From positions 46,418 to 110,417 of the forward strand of contig JAHCJV010000005.1 in the NCBI GenBank assembly GCA_026126105.1: a DNA stretch of 64,000 nucleotides, read 5' to 3'. Of the stretch, positions 4,053-17,110 are shown in pieces (the first letter of the stretch is position 1; each line of letters opens with the position of its first letter). The stretch comes from Enhydrobacter sp. Its GTDB lineage: Bacteria > Pseudomonadota > Alphaproteobacteria > Reyranellales > Reyranellaceae. A program made the translations under genes and the position numbers. The notes beneath the pieces were generated by a model. The model was not told the origin of the DNA. It searched no databases and worked only from the letters and a program-made list of their open reading frames with translations.

Positions 4053-4487
4053 TCATGTTGGCATTCGCTTGGACTTGCGCTTCTTCTTGACCGCCAGCTC
4101 GCCGTACTTCATCCCCTCCAGCTTGATGCCGTCGGGATCGAGGAAGAACACGGCGTAGTAGTCGTCGTAATACTCGTCGGCCGGATCGACGATCCGGACT
4201 TTCTCCTTCTCGAGGAACGTCTGCAGGGCATCGACGTCGCGCCGGCTGCGCAGCTGGAAGGCGTAATGGTGCAGCCCGACATCGCCGATCTTGTACGTCT
4301 TGCGGCCCTCGGCAGGCGCGATCCAGTAGCGGGTCCGGCCGTTGGTCCAACCGATCGTGTCGGGATATTCGTCCGAGATATCGAAGCCAAGGAATTCGAA
4401 AAGCTTCGAATAGAACGCTTTAGACTTCTCGTAGTCGCGCACCCTGATCGAGATGTGGTCAATTCCGACGACTTTCGAAACGGGCAT
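4053..4487 (-). CDS. VOC/glyoxalase family protein
   Basis: GIDHISIRVRDYEKSKAFY, GLHHYAF, YYAVFFLDPDGIKLE; RBS GAGGAG before ATG 4487. Confidence 0.9.
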   Translation of the reverse strand: MPVSKVVGIDHISIRVRDYEKSKAFYSKLFEFLGFDISDEYPDTIGWTNGRTRYWIAPAEGRKTYKIGDVGLHHYAFQLRSRRDVDALQTFLEKEKVRIVDPADEYYDDYYAVFFLDPDGIKLEGMKYGELAVKKKRKSKRMPT

Positions 4488-4545
4488 GGTTTGCTCCTCG
4501 TGCTGCTGGTTGGACAACCGGCTCCGACTCCCTAAGTTGCGCCCA

Positions 4546-5538
4546 ATGCGCCTTTCCGTTCTCGACCAATCCGTCGCCGTCGCCGGCCGTCCTCACGATC
4601 AGTCGATCCGCAACACCGTGGCCTTGGCCAGGCACTGCGAGACGCTCGGGTACGAGCGGTTCTGGGTGTCCGAGCACCACAACCACCCCACCATCGTCGG
4701 CACGGCGCCGGAGATTGTCATGGCTGCGATCGCCGCTACGACCGAGAGAATTCGTATCGGCAGTGCCGGGATCATGCTGCCGCACTATGCGCCCTTCAAG
4801 GTGGCCGAAGTCTTCCGCGTGCTCGACGCCTTGGCCCCCGGCCGCATCGACATGGGGCTCGGCCGCGCGCCCGGATCGGACGGCCGCACGGCATTCGCGC
4901 TGAACCCGGCCGCGAACGAACGGCCCGAGCACTTCCCGTCCGATGTCCGCGACCTGATCGCCTGGGTGCACAACGAGCCGCTGGTAAACGGGCATCCTTT
5001 CGCGGCGGTTCAAGCCTTCCCGCAAGGTGCCACCGCGCCCGAGGTCTGGATACTCGGCAGCTCGGACTACGGCGCCCAGGTCGCCGCCCTGTTCGGCCTG
5101 CCCTACTGTTACGCCTGGTTCTTCAGCGATGGCGCCGGCGGCGAGCGCGCGATCGATCTCTACAAGAGAACCTACCGGCCGAGCGCACGGCATCCCGAGC
5201 CGCACTCCGGCCTCTGCGTCTGGGCGCTCGCGGCGCCGACAATGGAAGAGGCGCAATACCATCTCACCTCGCGCGTGCTCTCGCGCATAAATCGCGACCG
5301 CGGCCTGCTCGGACCGCTGGTGTCGCCCGACGAGGCAGCGAAGATGCTGGCGCCGCACGACCAGACGCGCATCGACAGGATCCGCCGGGATACATTCGTC
5401 GGCACTGGCGCCGAGGTGATGGCCCGCATCGTCGAATTGAAGGAGCGGGTGGGCGTCGACGAGATGGCGGTCGTCACCTGGACCTACGACGAAGCCGTTC
5501 GCCGCCAGAGTTATGCCGAGCTGGCAAAAGCGTTCTAA
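4546..5538 (+). CDS. LLM-class (luciferase-like) flavin-dependent oxidoreductase
   Basis: MRLSVLDQS, RFWVSEHH, RIRIGSAGIMLPHYAPFKVAE, GRIDMGLGRAPG. Confidence 0.9.
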   Translation: MRLSVLDQSVAVAGRPHDQSIRNTVALARHCETLGYERFWVSEHHNHPTIVGTAPEIVMAAIAATTERIRIGSAGIMLPHYAPFKVAEVFRVLDALAPGRIDMGLGRAPGSDGRTAFALNPAANERPEHFPSDVRDLIAWVHNEPLVNGHPFAAVQAFPQGATAPEVWILGSSDYGAQVAALFGLPYCYAWFFSDGAGGERAIDLYKRTYRPSARHPEPHSGLCVWALAAPTMEEAQYHLTSRVLSRINRDRGLLGPLVSPDEAAKMLAPHDQTRIDRIRRDTFVGTGAEVMARIVELKERVGVDEMAVVTWTYDEAVRRQSYAELAKAF

Positions 5539-5549
5539 CGGCGGGAACA

Positions 5550-6797
5550 ATGACACAGACGCTCTTCACCAACGCAAACCTCGTGCTCGACGGTTTCGCC
5601 GATCTGCAGCCGGCCTTAACCGTTCTGGTAAAGGACAATCGCATCGTCGCGGTGTCCGCGAGTCCGATCAGCGCGCCGGAAGCGACCGTCATCGATGTTG
5701 GCGGAAGGACGCTGATGCCCGGGCTGATCGACGCCCACGCGCACATCACCGGGCTGTCACTGACGCCGAAGAACATCGCCTACCCCGCCGCGGAAATCGC
5801 CATTGCCTCGGCGAACTACCTGCGCAACTGCCTGATGGACGGCTACACGACCATCCGCGAGGCAGGCGGGGCAGACCACGCCACCGCCCGGCTACTGGCG
5901 GAAGACCACATCATCGGGCCGCGCCTGTACTACTCGGGCAAGGCACTGACCCAGACCGGCGGCGGTGCCGATTTCCGCACGCCCGACGAGGCGATCGACC
6001 CGTGCGGTCACGTGGGACCGTTCTCGAACATGTCAGTGATCGCCGACGGCACCGCCGAGGTGCGCAAGGCTGCGCGCGAAGAGCTGCGAAAAGGGGCCAC
6101 GCAGATCAAGCTGTTCGCGTCGGGCGGTGTGGTGTTCCCCGCAGAGGGCCATGCGACGCGCTACGAGTTTTCCGTGGAAGAGCTAGAGGCCGTCGTCGAA
6201 GAGGCGACGGCGCGCGATACCTATGTCATGGCGCATGTCTATACCGACGAGGGCGTGAGGCGGTGCCTGCGTGCGGGCGTGCGCTCCATCGAGCATGCCA
6301 ATTTCGTCACTGAAGATACGGTCATGATGATGGCCGACTATCACGCGTTCTACGTCCCGACCTTCATCTCGCTCGTGCAGCGGGTCGAGAGCGCCGCCGA
6401 AACCCATCTGCCAGCCTCCATCGTCGACAACCTGCAGCGCACGATCGCGCGGGGCCGCCAAGTCTATGGCTGGGCGCGCAAGCACAAGGTCCCGATAGGG
6501 TTCGGCACCGACCTTTGGGGTCCCGAGGCCCAGAAAGCCCAGCTCCGCGAATTCGAGATGCGCCGCGATCTCGATTCGCCCGTTAACATCCTGCGCTCGG
6601 CGACCGTCACCAACGCCGAGCTGCTCATGGAAAACGGCACGCTCGGCGTCATCAGCGAGGGCGCCTGTGCCGACCTCCTGATCGTCGAAGGCAACCCCCT
6701 CGCCGATCTGTCCGTCCTGATGAACCCGGACAAGAATCTCAAATTCATCATGAAGGATGGCAGGGTCTACAAGAACGAGCTGGCGGCCGGCTCCTGA
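5550..6797 (+). CDS. Metal-dependent amidohydrolase (prolidase-like subgroup)
   Basis: TLMPGLIDAHAH, QIKLFASGGV, VMAHVY, SIEHANF, GFGTD. Confidence 0.9.
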   Translation: MTQTLFTNANLVLDGFADLQPALTVLVKDNRIVAVSASPISAPEATVIDVGGRTLMPGLIDAHAHITGLSLTPKNIAYPAAEIAIASANYLRNCLMDGYTTIREAGGADHATARLLAEDHIIGPRLYYSGKALTQTGGGADFRTPDEAIDPCGHVGPFSNMSVIADGTAEVRKAAREELRKGATQIKLFASGGVVFPAEGHATRYEFSVEELEAVVEEATARDTYVMAHVYTDEGVRRCLRAGVRSIEHANFVTEDTVMMMADYHAFYVPTFISLVQRVESAAETHLPASIVDNLQRTIARGRQVYGWARKHKVPIGFGTDLWGPEAQKAQLREFEMRRDLDSPVNILRSATVTNAELLMENGTLGVISEGACADLLIVEGNPLADLSVLMNPDKNLKFIMKDGRVYKNELAAGS

Positions 6798-6837
6798 CGC
6801 AGCTCCGTCCAGCTTTCGGATAGCGTCAGCCCGCAGG
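6798..6837. repeat. Left direct repeat: degenerate copy of the 3' end of the 7801-8382 gene
   Basis: GCTCCGTCCAGCTTTCGGA (6802-6820) is identical to 7809-7827; 33 of 40 nt match over 6798-6837 vs 7805-7844. Confidence 0.85.
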
Positions 6838-6878
6838 AGAGAATAGCTTATCCTCACATCTCGGCCGTCGTATCTGGG

Positions 6879-7787
6879 CTAGCCCAGAAAAGCCGCGCGG
6901 TGCCGCTCGATGTACTGGGGGCGCGGCCAAAGGGCCTTATTCTTTGGCAAGCGAATTCGCTGCAGTTGTCGCTCAAACAACGACCGTAATTCGCCCGGCA
7001 CACGATTGTGCGAGACGAGCAAGCCGTAGTCGTCGGCGAGAGAGATCAGATGGCGGTCGAACAGCCAATGAACGGTCGCGGAGAGTGCCAGTCCGTTCTG
7101 CACGACATCGGGACCGCCAGCCGCAACGGACCAGATATGGGCGGCCTGCGCCTCCGCCTTGCCGCCGCCATTGACCATCCGCAAGCCCGTTACCGCGCAC
7201 GTGTTGTCGTAAGCCCGACAAACCTGATGCCGGAAGCTGGCATCGCGAATCTTTCGGTTCATCAGGATTTGCACGACGCGCCGCTCTTGCTCCTCTTCAG
7301 AGGCGTTCAGCAGCGTCAAGGTCTCCGAATCCGCGTGGGCTGGATCCAGTTCCAACCGTACCGCATTCGCAGGATCGAGCGTCTCCGCCAGACCCTGACG
7401 AACGATGTCGCCGAACTCGATCTCGGAGATCGTCCGAACCGAATGTCCCTGCAGGGCGCGGCCGATCAAAGATCGTTTGGCGACGAAGTCGAGCCGACGC
7501 TCGTAGAAGCCGCTCGATCGTTCCAGAGGAACGATCTCATCGAACGGCAGAAAGTCCTCCATCCAAGCGTAGGAATGCCCTGGAAGCTTGGGATCAGGAT
7601 CGATGCCCGCGACGCGGGCAGCGGCAAAATAGCCAACCCGCCCTCCACCCCGGCGGGGTGCCCGGTAAACAATCCAGTCTTCGGCCGCCTTTCGGGCCTC
7701 GGCCAAGTAACGATCCGGAAAATGGTATCGGGTCTGGATTTCATCGTCGTATCCAGACCCGGGTCTTGAATCGAAGACAGCCTTCAT
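6879..7787 (-). CDS. HNH endonuclease with N-terminal putative PUA/EVE-like domain (predicted restriction nuclease)
   Basis: RDASFRHQVCRAYDNTCAVTG, AQAAHIWSVAAGGPDVVQNGLALSATVHWLFDRHLI (HNH_2/COG3440-like). Confidence 0.88.
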   Translation of the reverse strand: MKAVFDSRPGSGYDDEIQTRYHFPDRYLAEARKAAEDWIVYRAPRRGGGRVGYFAAARVAGIDPDPKLPGHSYAWMEDFLPFDEIVPLERSSGFYERRLDFVAKRSLIGRALQGHSVRTISEIEFGDIVRQGLAETLDPANAVRLELDPAHADSETLTLLNASEEEQERRVVQILMNRKIRDASFRHQVCRAYDNTCAVTGLRMVNGGGKAEAQAAHIWSVAAGGPDVVQNGLALSATVHWLFDRHLISLADDYGLLVSHNRVPGELRSLFERQLQRIRLPKNKALWPRPQYIERHRAAFLG

Positions 7788-7800
7788 TGCCGCGGCGGGG

Positions 7801-8382
7801 TCAGCGCGGCTCCGTCCAGCTTTCGGAGAAGGCGAGCGCGCAGGTGCTGAAAGGTTGGCCCTCGCGCTCGCGCGGCCACGGCTGGCCCTTTGCTTCCTTG
7901 CCGTCGACTGTCAGCCTTGCGCCGAGCGCGGGGATCAGGAGCGTGCAGACACCGTAGGGCCGCGGATTGGGCGCCTGGTTGGGCTGCGTGTGGATCAGCA
8001 GCGGCTCGCCAATGTCGTACCAGGTGAGCGCAATCTCCGCATCCGTGGCCGAAACATGTTCGGTCCAGAAATAGCGCGGGTCGCCGGACTTCTCGAACGC
8101 CGCGTCGACCACAGGGATCGTCAGATCCTTCAGCTCCGGATTGAGCATGCCCTGCACGGTCTTCTGCAACCAGCGGGCCATGGCGATGTTGTCGGAATAA
8201 ATACGCCATTTGCCCTCGGTCAGCTCGCTCTTCATGTAGAGCACGTGACCAGGTCCCGAGGGGCAATGGATGATTCGCCAGTAGCTCGCGTCGGTCGAAT
8301 TCGGGTCTCCGTCCTTGCTGCTGAGGCGGATGAAGGGATTCTCCCCTGTGAGAATTGTGCGATTTGGGTCGGCAACGCTCAT
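7801..8382 (-). CDS. Conserved hypothetical protein (193 aa)
   Basis: RBS CAGGAGA before ATG 8382; typical codon usage; no motif recognised. Confidence 0.8.
   Translation of the reverse strand: MSVADPNRTILTGENPFIRLSSKDGDPNSTDASYWRIIHCPSGPGHVLYMKSELTEGKWRIYSDNIAMARWLQKTVQGMLNPELKDLTIPVVDAAFEKSGDPRYFWTEHVSATDAEIALTWYDIGEPLLIHTQPNQAPNPRPYGVCTLLIPALGARLTVDGKEAKGQPWPREREGQPFSTCALAFSESWTEPR
7805..7844. repeat. Right direct repeat (functional 3' end of the 7801-8382 gene)
   Basis: Matches 6798-6837 at an offset of 1007 nt. Confidence 0.85.
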
Positions 8383-8458: not shown

Positions 8459-11221
8459 ATGGTCGTCTTTCGTCGCGCGATTGTCATCATCGCTACCGGC
8501 ACGCTCGGATTCACGGGCTTCGCCGGGACGTCCTTCGCACAGTCCTCACCTTCGGTCGGGCCGGGCGACCCGCCTGCCCGTGTGGGACGTCTGGCCTATC
8601 TCCAGGGCACCGTGTCGTTCCATGAGAACGACCAGACCGATTGGCAGCCGGCGCTGCTGAACTCGCCGGTCACGACCGGTGACGCTATCTGGACCGAACC
8701 CAATGCACGTTCCGAAGTGTCCATCGCCGGCACTCGTGTGCGCCTGGACTCCGCGACGCTCCTCGACATGGTCGCGCTCGATGATCACCTCACCCGCATG
8801 GAGCTGGAGCAGGGACGCATCGACATCAAGACCTTCACCTACGACAACCGACAGCCATACGAGGTGATCACGCCACGCGGCATCGTCACGATTCAGCAGC
8901 AGGGCGACTACTACGTCGAGGCGGGGTCAACGCAGGATCCGACGAGACTCGGCGTGCGCGAAGGCGCTGCGCAGTTCGAGACGGCGAACGGGCAGACCGT
9001 GGCCGTCCGGGCTGGCGAGGTGGTCGAGATTTCAGGTCAAGACGGGGCACCGCAACTCAGCACGATCAAGACCGCCCCCCCGCCAATGCCCAAGCAGTGG
9101 GCGGAGCGGGACCGCCAGATCGCCTACGACAAGCCCCCTCAGTATCTGTCGAACAATGTGACCGGATACGAGGATCTGAATCGATACGGTACGTGGCAGA
9201 ACGATCCGGAATACGGACAGGTATGGTACGTCAACTCGCCGCCTTCCGGATGGGCGCCCTATACGACCGGTCGGTGGGTGTCCGACCCGACCTATGGCTG
9301 GACCTGGGTCGATGAGCAGCCTTGGGGCTTTGCACCGTACCATTATGGGCGATGGGCACAGCGCAACGAGCGCTGGTTCTGGGTTCCGCCCGACCGGCAG
9401 CAGCCCACCGTTTACGCGCCGGCGCTGGTGGCTTTCATGGGCGGCCTCGAGCTCGGCCAGGCGCTCGGCGCGCATAACCGGCGGCCCGTCGGCTGGTTCC
9501 CACTCGGGCCGCGCGAAGTCTACGTGCCTCCCTATTCGATGAATCGTGACTATTATCGCCGCATCAACTTCTCGGCTCGCGTGCAGCAGGAGATCCTCGA
9601 GGACCGCTGGCGGCGTTTCGAGCGTCGCGAGGCCCTGCGCGAAGACGAGCAGCGGCAGATGTGGATGAACCGCCGCTTTGCGCGGATCGTCGCGGCCGAC
9701 GACTTCGCCCGCTCGCGCCCCGTGCAGCGCGCGCTCATCCGTGTGAGCGGAGACAAGCTCGCGGCAGCACCCGTCGCGCTGATAGCCGCGCCGCCTCGCC
9801 CCAATGAGTCGATCCGCGCCATGGTGGAACGCCGGGAAGACCGGCGCGACAACAGAGCAGAGCGGCGCGAAGACCAGCGCGACGATCGCGCAGATCAGCG
9901 GGAAGACCGGCGCGACAACCGCGCAGATCGGCGTGAGGACCAGCGCGACGCCCAGCTGAACGAGTCGCGGCGCGCGGAGAACATGTTGGGCCTCCAGCCT
10001 GAGCCCGAGAAGAAGAAGGCTCCCGGGCCGCAGATCGCGGACCGCCGCGATGCCCGTCGCGACGGCAGGGCAGACGCAAGCAAGTCTGACACCGACCGAA
10101 GGGATGCCAAGCAGGACCTGCCGCAGCTGGCGCCCCGCCACGCGTCGGCGCCGCCGCAGCCCAAGCTCGACGGAGACCGCCGGCAAGCTGGTGACGACAA
10201 AAGGCCCGATCAGGCGAACGAGGCCAACCGCGCCGCCGACCGGGACCGTGCTACACCGGACCGTGACCGTGGGGATCGAGCTGACCGCGACCGTGCCGAC
10301 CAGGTCCGTACCGATCAGGATCGCAGGGACCGAGACCGCGCTGATCGCGACCGCTCAGGGGCGCCGGACCGCGACCGTGCCAATCAGCGCAATGAGCAGC
10401 CCGGACAAGCGAACCTTCCGCCACTAAGGGACCGCAACGACCGACGGCCCGATGCACCGCAAGCCGGCGAGCCGCGCAACCAGGCTCGTGAGGGTGCCCA
10501 ACCGAATAGCGGCAAGGCCGACCGCGACGACAACGATACGAAGCGTCCCACCCAGGCGGAGCGTCCAGCCGAACCGAACAAGCCAAAACAGGCCGACGCG
10601 CCGAAGCGCGGGGAACAGACACAACGTCCGGCCGACCCCGCCCCACCCAAACAGGGAGAGGAGTCGAAGCTGCGGAACCAGGCGCAGCGTTCGGACGACG
10701 CGGACAGGCCGAATCCCGCCCCGGAGCCCAAGCGGCCCGAAGCGCGCCCACAGGCCGAGCCCCCCAAGGCTCAGCAGGCCCAACCGCGAGCGCCACAGGC
10801 CGAACCGCGCCAACAGGCGCAGCAGCCCCAGCCCCAGCCGCAGCGACAGGCCGAGCCGCCGAAGCAGCCTGCCCCTCAGCCGCAACGCGAGCCGCAGCAG
10901 AGGCCAGACCGGCAAGGGATGAACGCTCCCGCACGGCAGCCCGAGCGTCAGCAGGCGCAGCCGCAGCGCCCCGCTCCGCAGCAACAGGCTGCACCGCAGC
11001 CGCAGCCTCGGCCCCAGGCCGCTCCTCAGCAGCCGCCGCAACAAGCACAGGCGCCACGCCCGGCGTCCCAGCCTCAAGCTCAGCCGAGGCCCCAGGCTGC
11101 TCCTCAGCAGCCGCAACAGGCGCAGGCTCCCGCTCCACAGCAGCAGGCTCAGCAGCCCGGCGGGGGTGGTGGCGGCGGTGGAAACCGCGGCGGCGGCAAC
11201 CAGAAGAACGACAAGAACTAG
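8459..11221 (+). CDS. Exported FecR-like/DUF6600 domain protein with long low-complexity tail
   Basis: Signal-peptide-like N-terminus, DPPARVGRLAYLQGTVSF, WAPYTTGRW..WTWVDEQPWGFAPYHYGRW, VGWFPLGPREVYVP; C-terminal half is R/D- and Q/P-rich repeats. Confidence 0.8.
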   Translation: MVVFRRAIVIIATGTLGFTGFAGTSFAQSSPSVGPGDPPARVGRLAYLQGTVSFHENDQTDWQPALLNSPVTTGDAIWTEPNARSEVSIAGTRVRLDSATLLDMVALDDHLTRMELEQGRIDIKTFTYDNRQPYEVITPRGIVTIQQQGDYYVEAGSTQDPTRLGVREGAAQFETANGQTVAVRAGEVVEISGQDGAPQLSTIKTAPPPMPKQWAERDRQIAYDKPPQYLSNNVTGYEDLNRYGTWQNDPEYGQVWYVNSPPSGWAPYTTGRWVSDPTYGWTWVDEQPWGFAPYHYGRWAQRNERWFWVPPDRQQPTVYAPALVAFMGGLELGQALGAHNRRPVGWFPLGPREVYVPPYSMNRDYYRRINFSARVQQEILEDRWRRFERREALREDEQRQMWMNRRFARIVAADDFARSRPVQRALIRVSGDKLAAAPVALIAAPPRPNESIRAMVERREDRRDNRAERREDQRDDRADQREDRRDNRADRREDQRDAQLNESRRAENMLGLQPEPEKKKAPGPQIADRRDARRDGRADASKSDTDRRDAKQDLPQLAPRHASAPPQPKLDGDRRQAGDDKRPDQANEANRAADRDRATPDRDRGDRADRDRADQVRTDQDRRDRDRADRDRSGAPDRDRANQRNEQPGQANLPPLRDRNDRRPDAPQAGEPRNQAREGAQPNSGKADRDDNDTKRPTQAERPAEPNKPKQADAPKRGEQTQRPADPAPPKQGEESKLRNQAQRSDDADRPNPAPEPKRPEARPQAEPPKAQQAQPRAPQAEPRQQAQQPQPQPQRQAEPPKQPAPQPQREPQQRPDRQGMNAPARQPERQQAQPQRPAPQQQAAPQPQPRPQAAPQQPPQQAQAPRPASQPQAQPRPQAAPQQPQQAQAPAPQQQAQQPGGGGGGGGNRGGGNQKNDKN
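9833..9964 (+). repeat. In-frame 33-nt (11-aa) tandem repeat, 4 units
   Basis: REDRRDNRAER / REDQRDDRADQ / REDRRDNRADR / REDQRDAQLNE. Confidence 0.85.
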
Positions 11222-16462: not shown

Positions 16463-17110
16463 ATGCATCGCTTCGCATTCTTTCTGCTTGTCTTCCTGAC
16501 CGCGAGTTCCTCGGCGGTCGGCGCCGACCGCCTGCCTTATGGTGCGGACCTGTCTTTTTCCGTATGGCGAAACGGCCAGCAGATCGGCAGGCACAAATTG
16601 GCCTTCGAGCAGGATAGCGGCCAACTCAAGGTCTCGACGTCTATCGACCTCGCCGTCAAACTTGTCGGCATTACCGCCTACCGCTACTCGCACCGCGCGC
16701 AAGAAGTGTGGAGCGGAGATGCTCTCCTGTCGCTGACGAGCCGCACCGATGACGACGGCAAGCAATACTCGGTACAGGCCAGCCGGACGGGAGAGGGGAT
16801 CGCCGTACTGGCGCAGAGCGCGGGCCGTCAGGTGCTGCCGGGCACCATCCTCCCTTCCTCCCACTGGAACTTCCGGCAGGTCGCTCAGACGGTCCTGCTG
16901 AACAGCCAAAAGGGCAGCGAGGCTCGCGTGAAGGTCACCACAGTCGGGCGCGAAACGATCAGGACCGCCTCGAGCACCCTGCCGGCGACTCGCTACCGCT
17001 ATGAGGGGGATGTCAAGATGGACCAGTGGTTCGACGACCGTGGACGCTGGGTCAAGATGGCCTTTGCGGGTTCCGATGGCTCGGCCATCGAATACGTGCT
17101 GCAGGAATGA
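16463..17110 (+). CDS. DUF6134-family exported protein
   Basis: Signal peptide, FSVWRNGQQIGRH, AYRYSHRAQEVW, PSSHWN, WFDDRGRWVK. Confidence 0.7.
   Translation: MHRFAFFLLVFLTASSSAVGADRLPYGADLSFSVWRNGQQIGRHKLAFEQDSGQLKVSTSIDLAVKLVGITAYRYSHRAQEVWSGDALLSLTSRTDDDGKQYSVQASRTGEGIAVLAQSAGRQVLPGTILPSSHWNFRQVAQTVLLNSQKGSEARVKVTTVGRETIRTASSTLPATRYRYEGDVKMDQWFDDRGRWVKMAFAGSDGSAIEYVLQE

Follow-up and report, generated by a model that had tools for sequence, protein, structure and literature searches.

A direct repeat bracketing an HNH nuclease gene in a Reyranella-like alphaproteobacterium: a probable scar of recombination between two alleles of one chromosomal slot

An intact HNH nuclease gene is bracketed by the two copies of a direct repeat in the window, i.e. 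the whole 64-kb stretch of DNA analysed, which derives from a Reyranella-like alphaproteobacterium. We consider it probable that this repeat is a leftover of the end of the neighbouring conserved gene, P193, stranded when an old recombination merged two alleles of a single chromosomal slot, and that it is not an att site. Two alternative fillings of one slot would thus have been stitched together, with both cut ends still readable, providing a clean, datable case of small accessory genes moving between species without mobile-element machinery. It also carries a caution for genome scanning, as the finding that a direct repeat restores the 3' end of a gene does not on its own argue for an att site.

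Organisation of the locus

The slot is bordered by two core genes, P193 and LUX, and in the window contains the following features.

4453-5538, forward strand: LUX, a luciferase-like (MsnO8-family LLM) oxidoreductase, core gene and the slot's other border
5550-6797, forward strand: AMID, an amidohydrolase (Amidohydro_1), the slot's second accessory gene, downstream of LUX
6798-6857, no strand assigned: P193 3'-end copy, displaced and non-functional, whose best-kept 40 nt (6798-6837) are the left repeat
6858-6878, no strand assigned: decayed vestige of a LUX 3'-end copy, immediately following the HNH stop (from multiple alignment)
6873-6888, no strand assigned: perfect 16-bp palindrome TCTGGGCTAGCCCAGA over the HNH stop
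6879-7787, reverse strand: intact HNH gene, 302 aa, with a predicted PUA/EVE-like N-terminal domain and a C-terminal HNH_2 domain
7788-7800, reverse strand: 13-nt spacer from the P193 stop to the HNH start
7801-8382, reverse strand: P193, open reading frame for a conserved 193-aa protein, core gene in Reyranella, its 3' end being the repeated sequence
7805-7844, no strand assigned: right repeat copy, the working P193 3' end, encoding the C-terminus TCALAFSESWTEPR before the stop

The repeat is real and non-random. Its exact 19-nt core, GCTCCGTCCAGCTTTCGGA, lies at 6802-6820 and 7809-7827 inside a larger 40-nt repeat (6798-6837 and 7805-7844) that is 33/40, or 83%, identical, just as the first-pass annotation had reported, and with up to three mismatches allowed the core occurs only twice in the 64-kb window, where shuffled sequence predicts 0.01. 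That annotation was also correct in assigning the right copy to the C-terminus of the P193 protein, where the stop is TGA (7801-7803), and in describing the left copy, which adjoins the amidohydrolase stop (6795-6797), as a diverged version; it reads SCGLTLSESWTELR and has no stop, continuing as QEPAASSFL before termination. Alignment with relatives shows that the left repeat belongs to a longer copy of the P193 3' end, now decayed, of which it is the best-preserved piece; this copy is ~60 nt long in the window and about 65-70 nt in relatives, and was originally about 60-70 nt. Between it and the HNH stop lies the remnant of the LUX end, barely recognisable in the window and clear in the relatives L084, L081 and L116, so that the evidence for this second scar comes from the homologous loci. 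The composite order in the window is therefore P193, HNH, LUX 3'-end remnant, P193 3'-end copy, AMID and LUX.

All 80 species loci returned contain P193, at 79-96% identity, and searches of Pfam, NCBIfam, PADLOC and PDB gave no match for it. Homologues of LUX begin to align only at about residue 20-33, so its true start is probably near 4546. All HNH-bearing loci have a spacer of roughly 13-30 nt between P193 and HNH, and a scan of the window spacer for promoter-like or terminator-like sites found none; P193 and HNH are probably co-transcribed, judging from this arrangement. The palindrome across the HNH stop, singled out in the first-pass annotation, does exist, but we judge it a chance occurrence as the window holds two perfect 16-bp palindromes against 1.9 expected from shuffles and this one is not conserved in relatives. 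Its folding z-scores are -0.4 and -0.7, and for the palindrome and the inter-gene segments neither RNA structure nor promoter/terminator consensus was better than in shuffled controls.

Contents of the slot in related species

The slot was followed through a census of 71 related species loci having both flanks, P193 and LUX. The two genes are convergent and mostly adjacent, the gap between them being no more than 232 nt in 52 loci, comprising 42 in which it is below 150 nt and 10 in which it is 151-232 nt and filled by palindromic elements. These short gaps hold REP/MITE-like palindromic sequences, and the REP-like element of relatives is not present in the window. Most related species have an empty site, and in other species the slot carries different cargo; no integrase was seen. 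HNH occupies the slot in 8 loci of the census, AMID in 1, and unrelated, metabolic cargo in 11, such as a glutaminase, a transporter, a methyltransferase plus MarR, DUF1254/1214 and a binding protein. In the set of 80 species loci L002 alone carries AMID, further carriers being L081, L083, L084 and L096, and the genes recorded as neighbours of HNH are P193, DUF6600, the amidohydrolase, the LLM oxidoreductase and a glyoxalase.

The presence of HNH is patchy (8/71 species loci, scattered on the flank tree), and in Reyranella it always lies at the same P193/LUX junction. A search of 29 empty, short or other-cargo gaps by nhmmer profile and tblastn found no HNH remnants. We regard the P193-LUX slot, with the same good confidence as the explanation of which it forms part, as a variable region of Reyranella whose content has been changed by recombination through the conserved flanks.

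The second repeat copy and its origin

All 17 complete loci that have HNH without AMID lack a second repeat copy, and in such loci the HNH stop is usually within 16 nt of the LUX stop; in L017 and L082, which have the closest HNH genes, the two stops are flush (0 nt). Across L001-L080 a second copy was found in the window only, and outside this set only in L081, L083, L084 and L116, in the same position. It is thus restricted to loci shown or inferred to hold HNH and AMID together. In three of these composite loci (L084, L081 and L116) a ~22-nt copy of the LUX 3' end follows HNH, then the P193-end copy, and in L084 this LUX-end scar is identical to the genuine LUX end in 20/22 positions.

These features would be explained if the slot had existed as two alleles, an allele X in which HNH was wedged between the P193 and LUX stop codons, as in L017 and L082, and an allele Y in which AMID had been added after LUX with its stop against that of P193. 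X-type and Y-type DNA would have met in one cell, where a homologous crossover in a flanking gene and one illegitimate join, linking LUX 22 nt from its stop to P193 ~70 nt from its stop, would have produced the composite by homology-facilitated illegitimate recombination, a process with precedent (PMC3240628, PMC5361080). The composite would have arisen once, in an ancestor common to the window, L081, L083, L084 and L116. The repeat pair would then be two alleles of one gene end, a working one that travelled with HNH and a displaced one that is now decaying. The copied LUX end that follows the HNH stop and precedes the left repeat indicates that the HNH segment came from this same locus as it stood in another Reyranella chromosome. 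A short, GAGCNCG-like motif is shared at the LUX/P193 join and is suggestive of a microhomology join. As to the order of events, either gene may have been the newcomer, HNH in a Y-type genome or AMID in an X-type one.

The gene ends themselves conform to this view. The working P193 copy has the TGA end and the X-type spacer, both resembling the loci with the closest HNH genes, and the displaced copy has a TAG or TAA end, like the AMID-only L002 and most empty alleles. An orphan P193 3' fragment lies downstream of a segment having its own intact 3' end, donor-like X-type loci survive in L017 and L082, and the junction joins non-homologous ends of LUX and P193. The first-pass annotation had seen here the signature of integration into a gene's 3' end with the end restored; the working end does appear to have arrived with HNH, as that implies, although not through site-specific integration. 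We also considered a tandem duplication within one genome and rejected it, given that the copies have different stop codons and downstream spacers, just as the X and Y alleles do, and that a LUX-end fragment lies between them.

The event is old, as dS between the window and L081, L083 and L084 is 0.45-0.8. The displaced ends have since decayed differently by lineage, through indels and loss of frame or stop. In L083 gene conversion is suggested by 43 nt that are identical in both copies, a lineage-specific base among them, and occasional conversion between the copies would keep their central stretch identical. The sole Y-type locus, L002, is sister to the composite L081 in the flank tree, and for this reason could be a secondary repeat-to-repeat deletion rather than a surviving parent.

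Alternative explanations

The same observations bear on the suggestion that the repeat is selectively maintained, for example because it allows HNH to be deleted reversibly or because it serves AMID or HNH as a 3' regulatory element. The central stretch is indeed better conserved than neutral divergence predicts, that of L083 has been homogenised with the real copy, and the AMID-only L002 groups with a composite locus, all of which such maintenance would account for; against this stand the lineage-specific decay of the relics, the lack of significant predicted RNA structure, and a search of four public runs, confined to low-depth contigs, which revealed no repeat-to-repeat joint. We consider maintenance unlikely. 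A little less likely again is a more specific proposal, that the repeat pair is a recombinase-free switch for the presence or absence of HNH, with L002 as its product, or that the nuclease promotes its own spread. Were the switch real, a lineage could shed the nuclease by repeat-to-repeat deletion and regain it by recombination.

Homing-type selfish spread, in which HNH would cut HNH-less P193/LUX junctions and be copied in by repair, is compatible with the sporadic occurrence of HNH across the flank tree at one fixed Reyranella junction and with the absence of decaying remnants from the empty sites searched. This sporadic pattern is, however, also expected from allele exchange driven by recombination, and the divergence of HNH follows that of the flanks about as closely as the flanks follow one another (Spearman 0.47 vs 0.52), which fits co-inheritance. 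The junctions at empty sites lack sequence conservation and are often taken by other elements, homologues of the nuclease at up to 64% identity sit in unrelated contexts, the copies in L070, L116 and L112 are frameshifted, and the predicted PUA/EVE-like reader with HNH_2 is typical of modification-dependent restriction and not of homing endonucleases. Homing is very improbable on this evidence, and the homing-type insertion at an att site envisaged in the first-pass annotation gives way to a scar of homologous plus illegitimate recombination.

Least credible of all, and already largely refuted, is site-specific integration of a minimal integrative cassette, or the remnant of an island, by an integrase acting at an att site in the P193 3' end, with the repeats as attL and attR: a perfect 19-nt core does bracket HNH and reconstitute the gene end, and empty sites do exist, but att-like repeats bounding a discrete cassette are hard to reconcile with 17 complete HNH-only loci without a second copy, with the copied LUX end that separates HNH from the left repeat, with a native end in all empty alleles that is TEPR-stop-like, the same as the supposedly restored one, and with a core that varies by lineage as a decaying relic would. 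The same flanking repeat does not accompany every insertion, and no recombinase was found in or beside the element, the earlier statement that integrase and transposase are missing being borne out by the window reading frames scanned, by the called genes within about 6 kb in L081 and L082, and by ten scanned cargo proteins.

The HNH nuclease

The HNH protein matches Pfam HNH_2 at residues 197-250 (E=7e-10), and this C-terminal HNH (beta-beta-alpha-metal) region has the catalytic His, Asn and His, as H217, N231 and H240 are invariant in 42 homologues. When the family profile was compared with the PDB, the only sequence matches were TagI (E=7e-5), VcaM4I and ScoMcrA, over the HNH part. An AlphaFold2 model has pLDDT mostly of 80-96 for residues 1-180 and is of low confidence in the HNH core (33-60, residues 210-260). 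In it, approximately residues 1-130 form a predicted PUA/EVE-like domain, for which Foldseek gave probabilities of 0.97-1.0 against the EVE proteins 2eve, 1zce, 2gbs and THYN1 5j3e, with target-normalised TM of 0.46-0.57 and weak E-values (5e-3 to 3e-2). At the level of prediction the N-terminal domain thus has a PUA-superfamily reader fold, and no sequence-level match to EVE or SRA domains was found for it. The protein scored 84 bits against the NCBIfam phosphorothioate-restriction model, below the cut-off of 180, and so is not a member of that subfamily.

The gene is under purifying selection, with dN/dS of 0.05-0.10; values for LUX in several pairs were discarded as artefacts of out-of-frame extraction (dN about 2). 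Its GC3 is 0.69, compared with 0.79-0.87 in neighbouring genes. The family is large and widespread (>1,700 matches), and the exact window protein is absent from the assembly index. No DNA methyltransferase was found among the genes neighbouring HNH. The protein is probably a functional, solitary Type IV restriction enzyme, and its substrate is most likely DNA with a foreign base modification. The predicted N-terminal reader domain of the family matches no sequence-based family model, and knowing which modification it recognises would add modestly but usefully to what is catalogued for modification-dependent restriction enzymes.

Comparison with known systems

Chromosomal hotspots of accessory genes between core genes exchange their content by homologous recombination. 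The P193-LUX slot resembles them in having many alternative contents across species, a patchy distribution and no mobile-element genes, but differs in being very small (0-5 kb), with cargo that is mostly metabolic and not defensive. Integrase islands in gene or tRNA 3' ends likewise have a direct repeat containing the gene 3' end flanking accessory DNA, whereas here no integrase was seen, most insertions of HNH lack the repeat, an additional LUX-end scar is present, and the two repeats represent diverged alleles rather than a crossover core.

The nuclease finds its counterparts in the modification-dependent enzymes combining PUA-superfamily and HNH domains, VcaM4I/TspA15I (EVE-HNH, PDB 6yex), TagI (SRA-HNH, PDB 6ghs) and ScoMcrA (PDB 5zmm) (PMC6765204, PMC7897488). 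Like them it has about 300 aa, with a predicted N-terminal PUA-like beta-barrel and a C-terminal HNH_2-type nuclease, and like them it is solitary, no DNA methyltransferase being reported near the PUA-HNH enzymes (PMC6765204). It differs in showing no detectable N-terminal sequence similarity to them, the fold being assigned from predicted structure.

The closest parallel for the scar is the displacement of gene ends proposed for rhs C-terminal displacement and for the T6SS effector-immunity arrays of Vibrio cholerae (PMC5361080). There, as in the recombination scar we propose, incoming DNA anchored by homology brings its own 3' end of a conserved gene and the resident 3' end is pushed downstream, surviving as an orphan fragment, with no recombinase needed and an illegitimate far junction. 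The present locus is distinct in that the anchor gene is not a polymorphic toxin and both ends encode about the same C-terminus, the donor would be another allele of the same chromosomal slot, and two scars, the P193 end and the LUX end, mark the join.

Results

The direct repeat on either side of the HNH gene is a fossil left by a recombination in which two alleles of one small variable slot became joined; this slot is the space between the convergent core genes P193 and LUX in Reyranella. The genes concerned are:

4453-5538 (+), LUX, luciferase-like MsnO8-family oxidoreductase
5550-6797 (+), AMID, amidohydrolase
6879-7787 (-), HNH, intact 302-aa ORF with a Pfam HNH_2 domain, between the repeat copies
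7801-8382 (-), P193, 193-aa protein without family assignment
right of P193 (+), DUF6600 protein

The repeat is exactly as the first-pass annotation described it, a perfect 19-nt core (6802-6820 / 7809-7827) within a 40-nt repeat (6798-6837 / 7805-7844) identical at 33/40 positions, and these are the only two copies with ≤3 mismatches in the window, where shuffles expect 0.01. The right copy encodes the P193 C-terminus TCALAFSESWTEPR*, and the left, adjoining the amidohydrolase stop, encodes SCGLTLSESWTELR without a stop codon. The 16-bp palindrome noted over the HNH stop codon exists, but it is at chance level (2 perfect 16-bp palindromes in the window vs 1.9 in shuffles) and is not conserved in relatives; no unusual folding was found in its region. 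The other such palindrome lies at 16515-16530 (CGGTCGGCGCCGACCG), and there is no third.

HNH starts 13 nt beyond the P193 stop, and as no promoter-like or terminator-like site was found in this spacer the two genes are likely co-transcribed. GC3 is 0.69 in HNH vs 0.79-0.87 in adjoining genes. The listed LUX start is probably too early (4453-4546), homologues aligning from about residue 20-33, and it overlaps the 5' end of a divergent glyoxalase-like gene, 4053-4517 (-). The DUF6600 protein has a C-terminal half (9600-11221) that consists of one long low-complexity stretch with abundant Arg, Asp, Pro, Gln and Ala; its GC is 0.70-0.75 and its AT skew is extreme, up to +0.76.

P193 relatives (79-96% identity) come from genomes of Reyranella and Reyranellaceae. 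Five window proteins were mapped onto 80 species-representative P193 loci (L001-L080), 71 of which contain both P193 and LUX.

Slot contents across Reyranella relatives
Gap <150 nt: 42 loci; convergent genes frequently 0-30 nt apart
Gap 151-232 nt: 10 loci; palindromic REP/MITE-like elements inside, no HNH remnant
HNH: 8 loci, besides three truncated contigs
AMID only: 1 locus (L002)
Other genes: 11 loci

Both the empty alleles and the alternative cargo anticipated by the first-pass annotation are thus present among the 71 loci. The other cargo comprises glutaminase, a transglutaminase-like protein and a CitMHS transporter; a DUF6600 paralogue with a methyltransferase and a MarR regulator; a DUF1254/DUF1214 protein; an FG-GAP protein; and a GntR-aminotransferase, a MOSC-rubredoxin protein and a periplasmic binding protein. 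The slot is variable in a general way and is not dedicated to defence. Neither an integrase nor a transposase turned up among the other cargo or within ~6 kb in the homologous loci L081 and L082. A class I SAM methyltransferase occupies the slot in L011 (5438-8370), L018 (6602-9540) and L013 (8017-9370), accompanied in L013 by the MarR regulator and in L011 and L018 by a second DUF6600/FecR paralogue, which amounts to the adjoining gene family duplicated into the slot.

Two palindromic element families were also observed in the slot. The first, absent from the window, looks like a REP/MITE-type repeat targeting gaps between convergent genes.

Palindromic elements in the slot
~100-110 nt, GTCATCCCGAGCG.AGCGAGGGATC ... 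inverted, recurring in several Reyranella genomes: L028:6583-6717, L014:6583-6733, L081:6985-7075, and L083 between the P193-end relic and AMID
~150 nt, CCTCATGCTGAGGAG ... CCTCCTCAGGATGAGG, occupying the otherwise empty slot in one clade: gap after P193, ~6583-6800, in L027, L030, L035, L047, L050, L052, L053 and L060

Across L001-L080 a second copy of the repeat core is present in the window alone. Further loci were added by a metagenome scan with the HNH protein and look-ups of its closest homologues, and in the combined set the second copy occurs only alongside both HNH and AMID, in the window, L084, L083, L081 and, with AMID presumed, L116, whose contig stops within the relic (HNH identity 91, 92, 89 and 89% for L084, L083, L081 and L116). 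It is absent in 17/17 complete loci with HNH but without AMID. In most of these the HNH and LUX stops lie between a 4-nt overlap and 16 nt apart, exactly flush in L017 (HNH identity 88%) and L082 (87%), the exceptions being gaps of 420 nt (L038) and 218 nt (L094).

The composite loci carry two scars, giving the order P193 - spacer - HNH - LUX-end relic - P193-end relic - AMID - LUX, in which the relics are copies of gene 3' ends. The 22 nt that follow the HNH stop in L084, TCAGAAGACCTTGGCGAGGTCG, match the real LUX 3' end, TCAGAAGGCCTTGGCGAGCTCG, at 20/22 positions; this copy is also present in L081 and L116, and only as a decayed trace in L083 and the window. The LUX-end relic is followed immediately by ~65-70 nt copied from the P193 3' end, stop codon included; in L084 this stop overlaps the AMID stop (CTAG), and in the window it is lost and the relic touches the AMID stop. 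In L081 and L083 a further palindromic element, roughly 110 nt long, separates the P193-end relic from AMID; it is a later insertion, as the slots of L028 and L014, otherwise empty, contain it too.

As the LUX-end relic shows, the HNH segment derives from a locus with HNH directly next to LUX, which is the usual HNH allele of Reyranella (X-type), and the P193-end relic touching AMID shows that in the other parent P193 abutted AMID (Y-type), the form seen in L002. In the composite clade and the closest X-type loci the working P193 end has a TGA stop with a homologous spacer beyond it; in the relics, in L002 and in most relatives lacking HNH the P193 stop is TAG or TAA. The composite would require one homologous crossover in a flank and one illegitimate join, of LUX (+22) to P193 (about -70), and a GAGCNCG-like motif is common to both sequences at the join. 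Homology-facilitated illegitimate recombination yields such an outcome (PMC3240628). Transfer may have brought HNH into a Y-type genome or AMID into an X-type genome. As L002 groups with L081 on the flank tree, it could alternatively be a secondary repeat-to-repeat deletion. The proposed readings as an att site, a cassette or a homing insertion find no support.

This merging of alleles is old, since the window is separated from L081, L083 and L084 by a synonymous divergence of 0.45-0.8. Relic decay differs by lineage: substitutions have accumulated, L084 has a 1-nt deletion, and the window has lost the stop. In L083 relic and real P193 end are identical over 43 nt, including a lineage-specific base, which indicates gene conversion between them; gene conversion, or chance, would explain the perfect 19-nt core in the window.

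HNH-bearing loci are scattered on the neighbour-joining tree of flanks. HNH and flank divergence correlate about as well (Spearman 0.47) as flank with flank (0.52), no HNH debris was found in empty sites, and three copies are frameshifted (L070, L116, L112), all of which fits an old slot resident, exchanged and lost by allele replacement through conserved flanks. The frameshifted copies, each in two reading frames (L070:6601-7499, L116:834-1734, L112:384-1275), are pseudogenes or assembly errors. A biofilter-metagenome contig ~90% identical to the window has an HNH allele with 8 nt in place of 202 (window 7315-7518), probably a dying copy. HNH homologues with ≤64% identity have unrelated gene neighbourhoods and are found on plasmids of Rhizobiales and Roseomonas or, rarely, in phages, so P193 is not a functional partner of HNH outside Reyranella. 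In L096 (1-2914) a homologue (66% identity) lies beyond the opposite end of LUX, oriented divergently from the LUX start, and AMID follows LUX, a second insertion position of this family beside LUX.

The C-terminal part of the protein is the HNH_2 domain, with H217, N231 and H240 invariant. Its family profile has only three PDB matches, TagI (SRA-HNH), VcaM4I (EVE-HNH) and ScoMcrA, all modification-dependent restriction enzymes. The AlphaFold2 model (mean pLDDT 75) is confident at residues 1-180, with the HNH core poorly modelled, and in Foldseek the predicted N-terminal domain is similar to proteins with EVE and other PUA-like domains (probability 0.97-1.0, E-values weak). PADLOC matches the protein to generic HNH restriction models; an NCBIfam phosphorothioate-restriction model matches well below its cut-off. 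A dN/dS of 0.05-0.10 shows that the gene is functional. HNH probably encodes a solitary Type IV restriction endonuclease that belongs to a known architectural class.

Discussion

Both the recombination scar and the nuclease belong to known kinds, and the locus is of value chiefly as an unusually legible example of an allele-merging scar. It counsels that a repeat restoring a gene end needs careful interpretation. No methyltransferase was found near the HNH gene, as is typical of PUA-HNH enzymes (PMC6765204, PMC7897488), and the composite is formally like the displaced 3' ends reported for rhs and T6SS effector arrays (PMC5361080).
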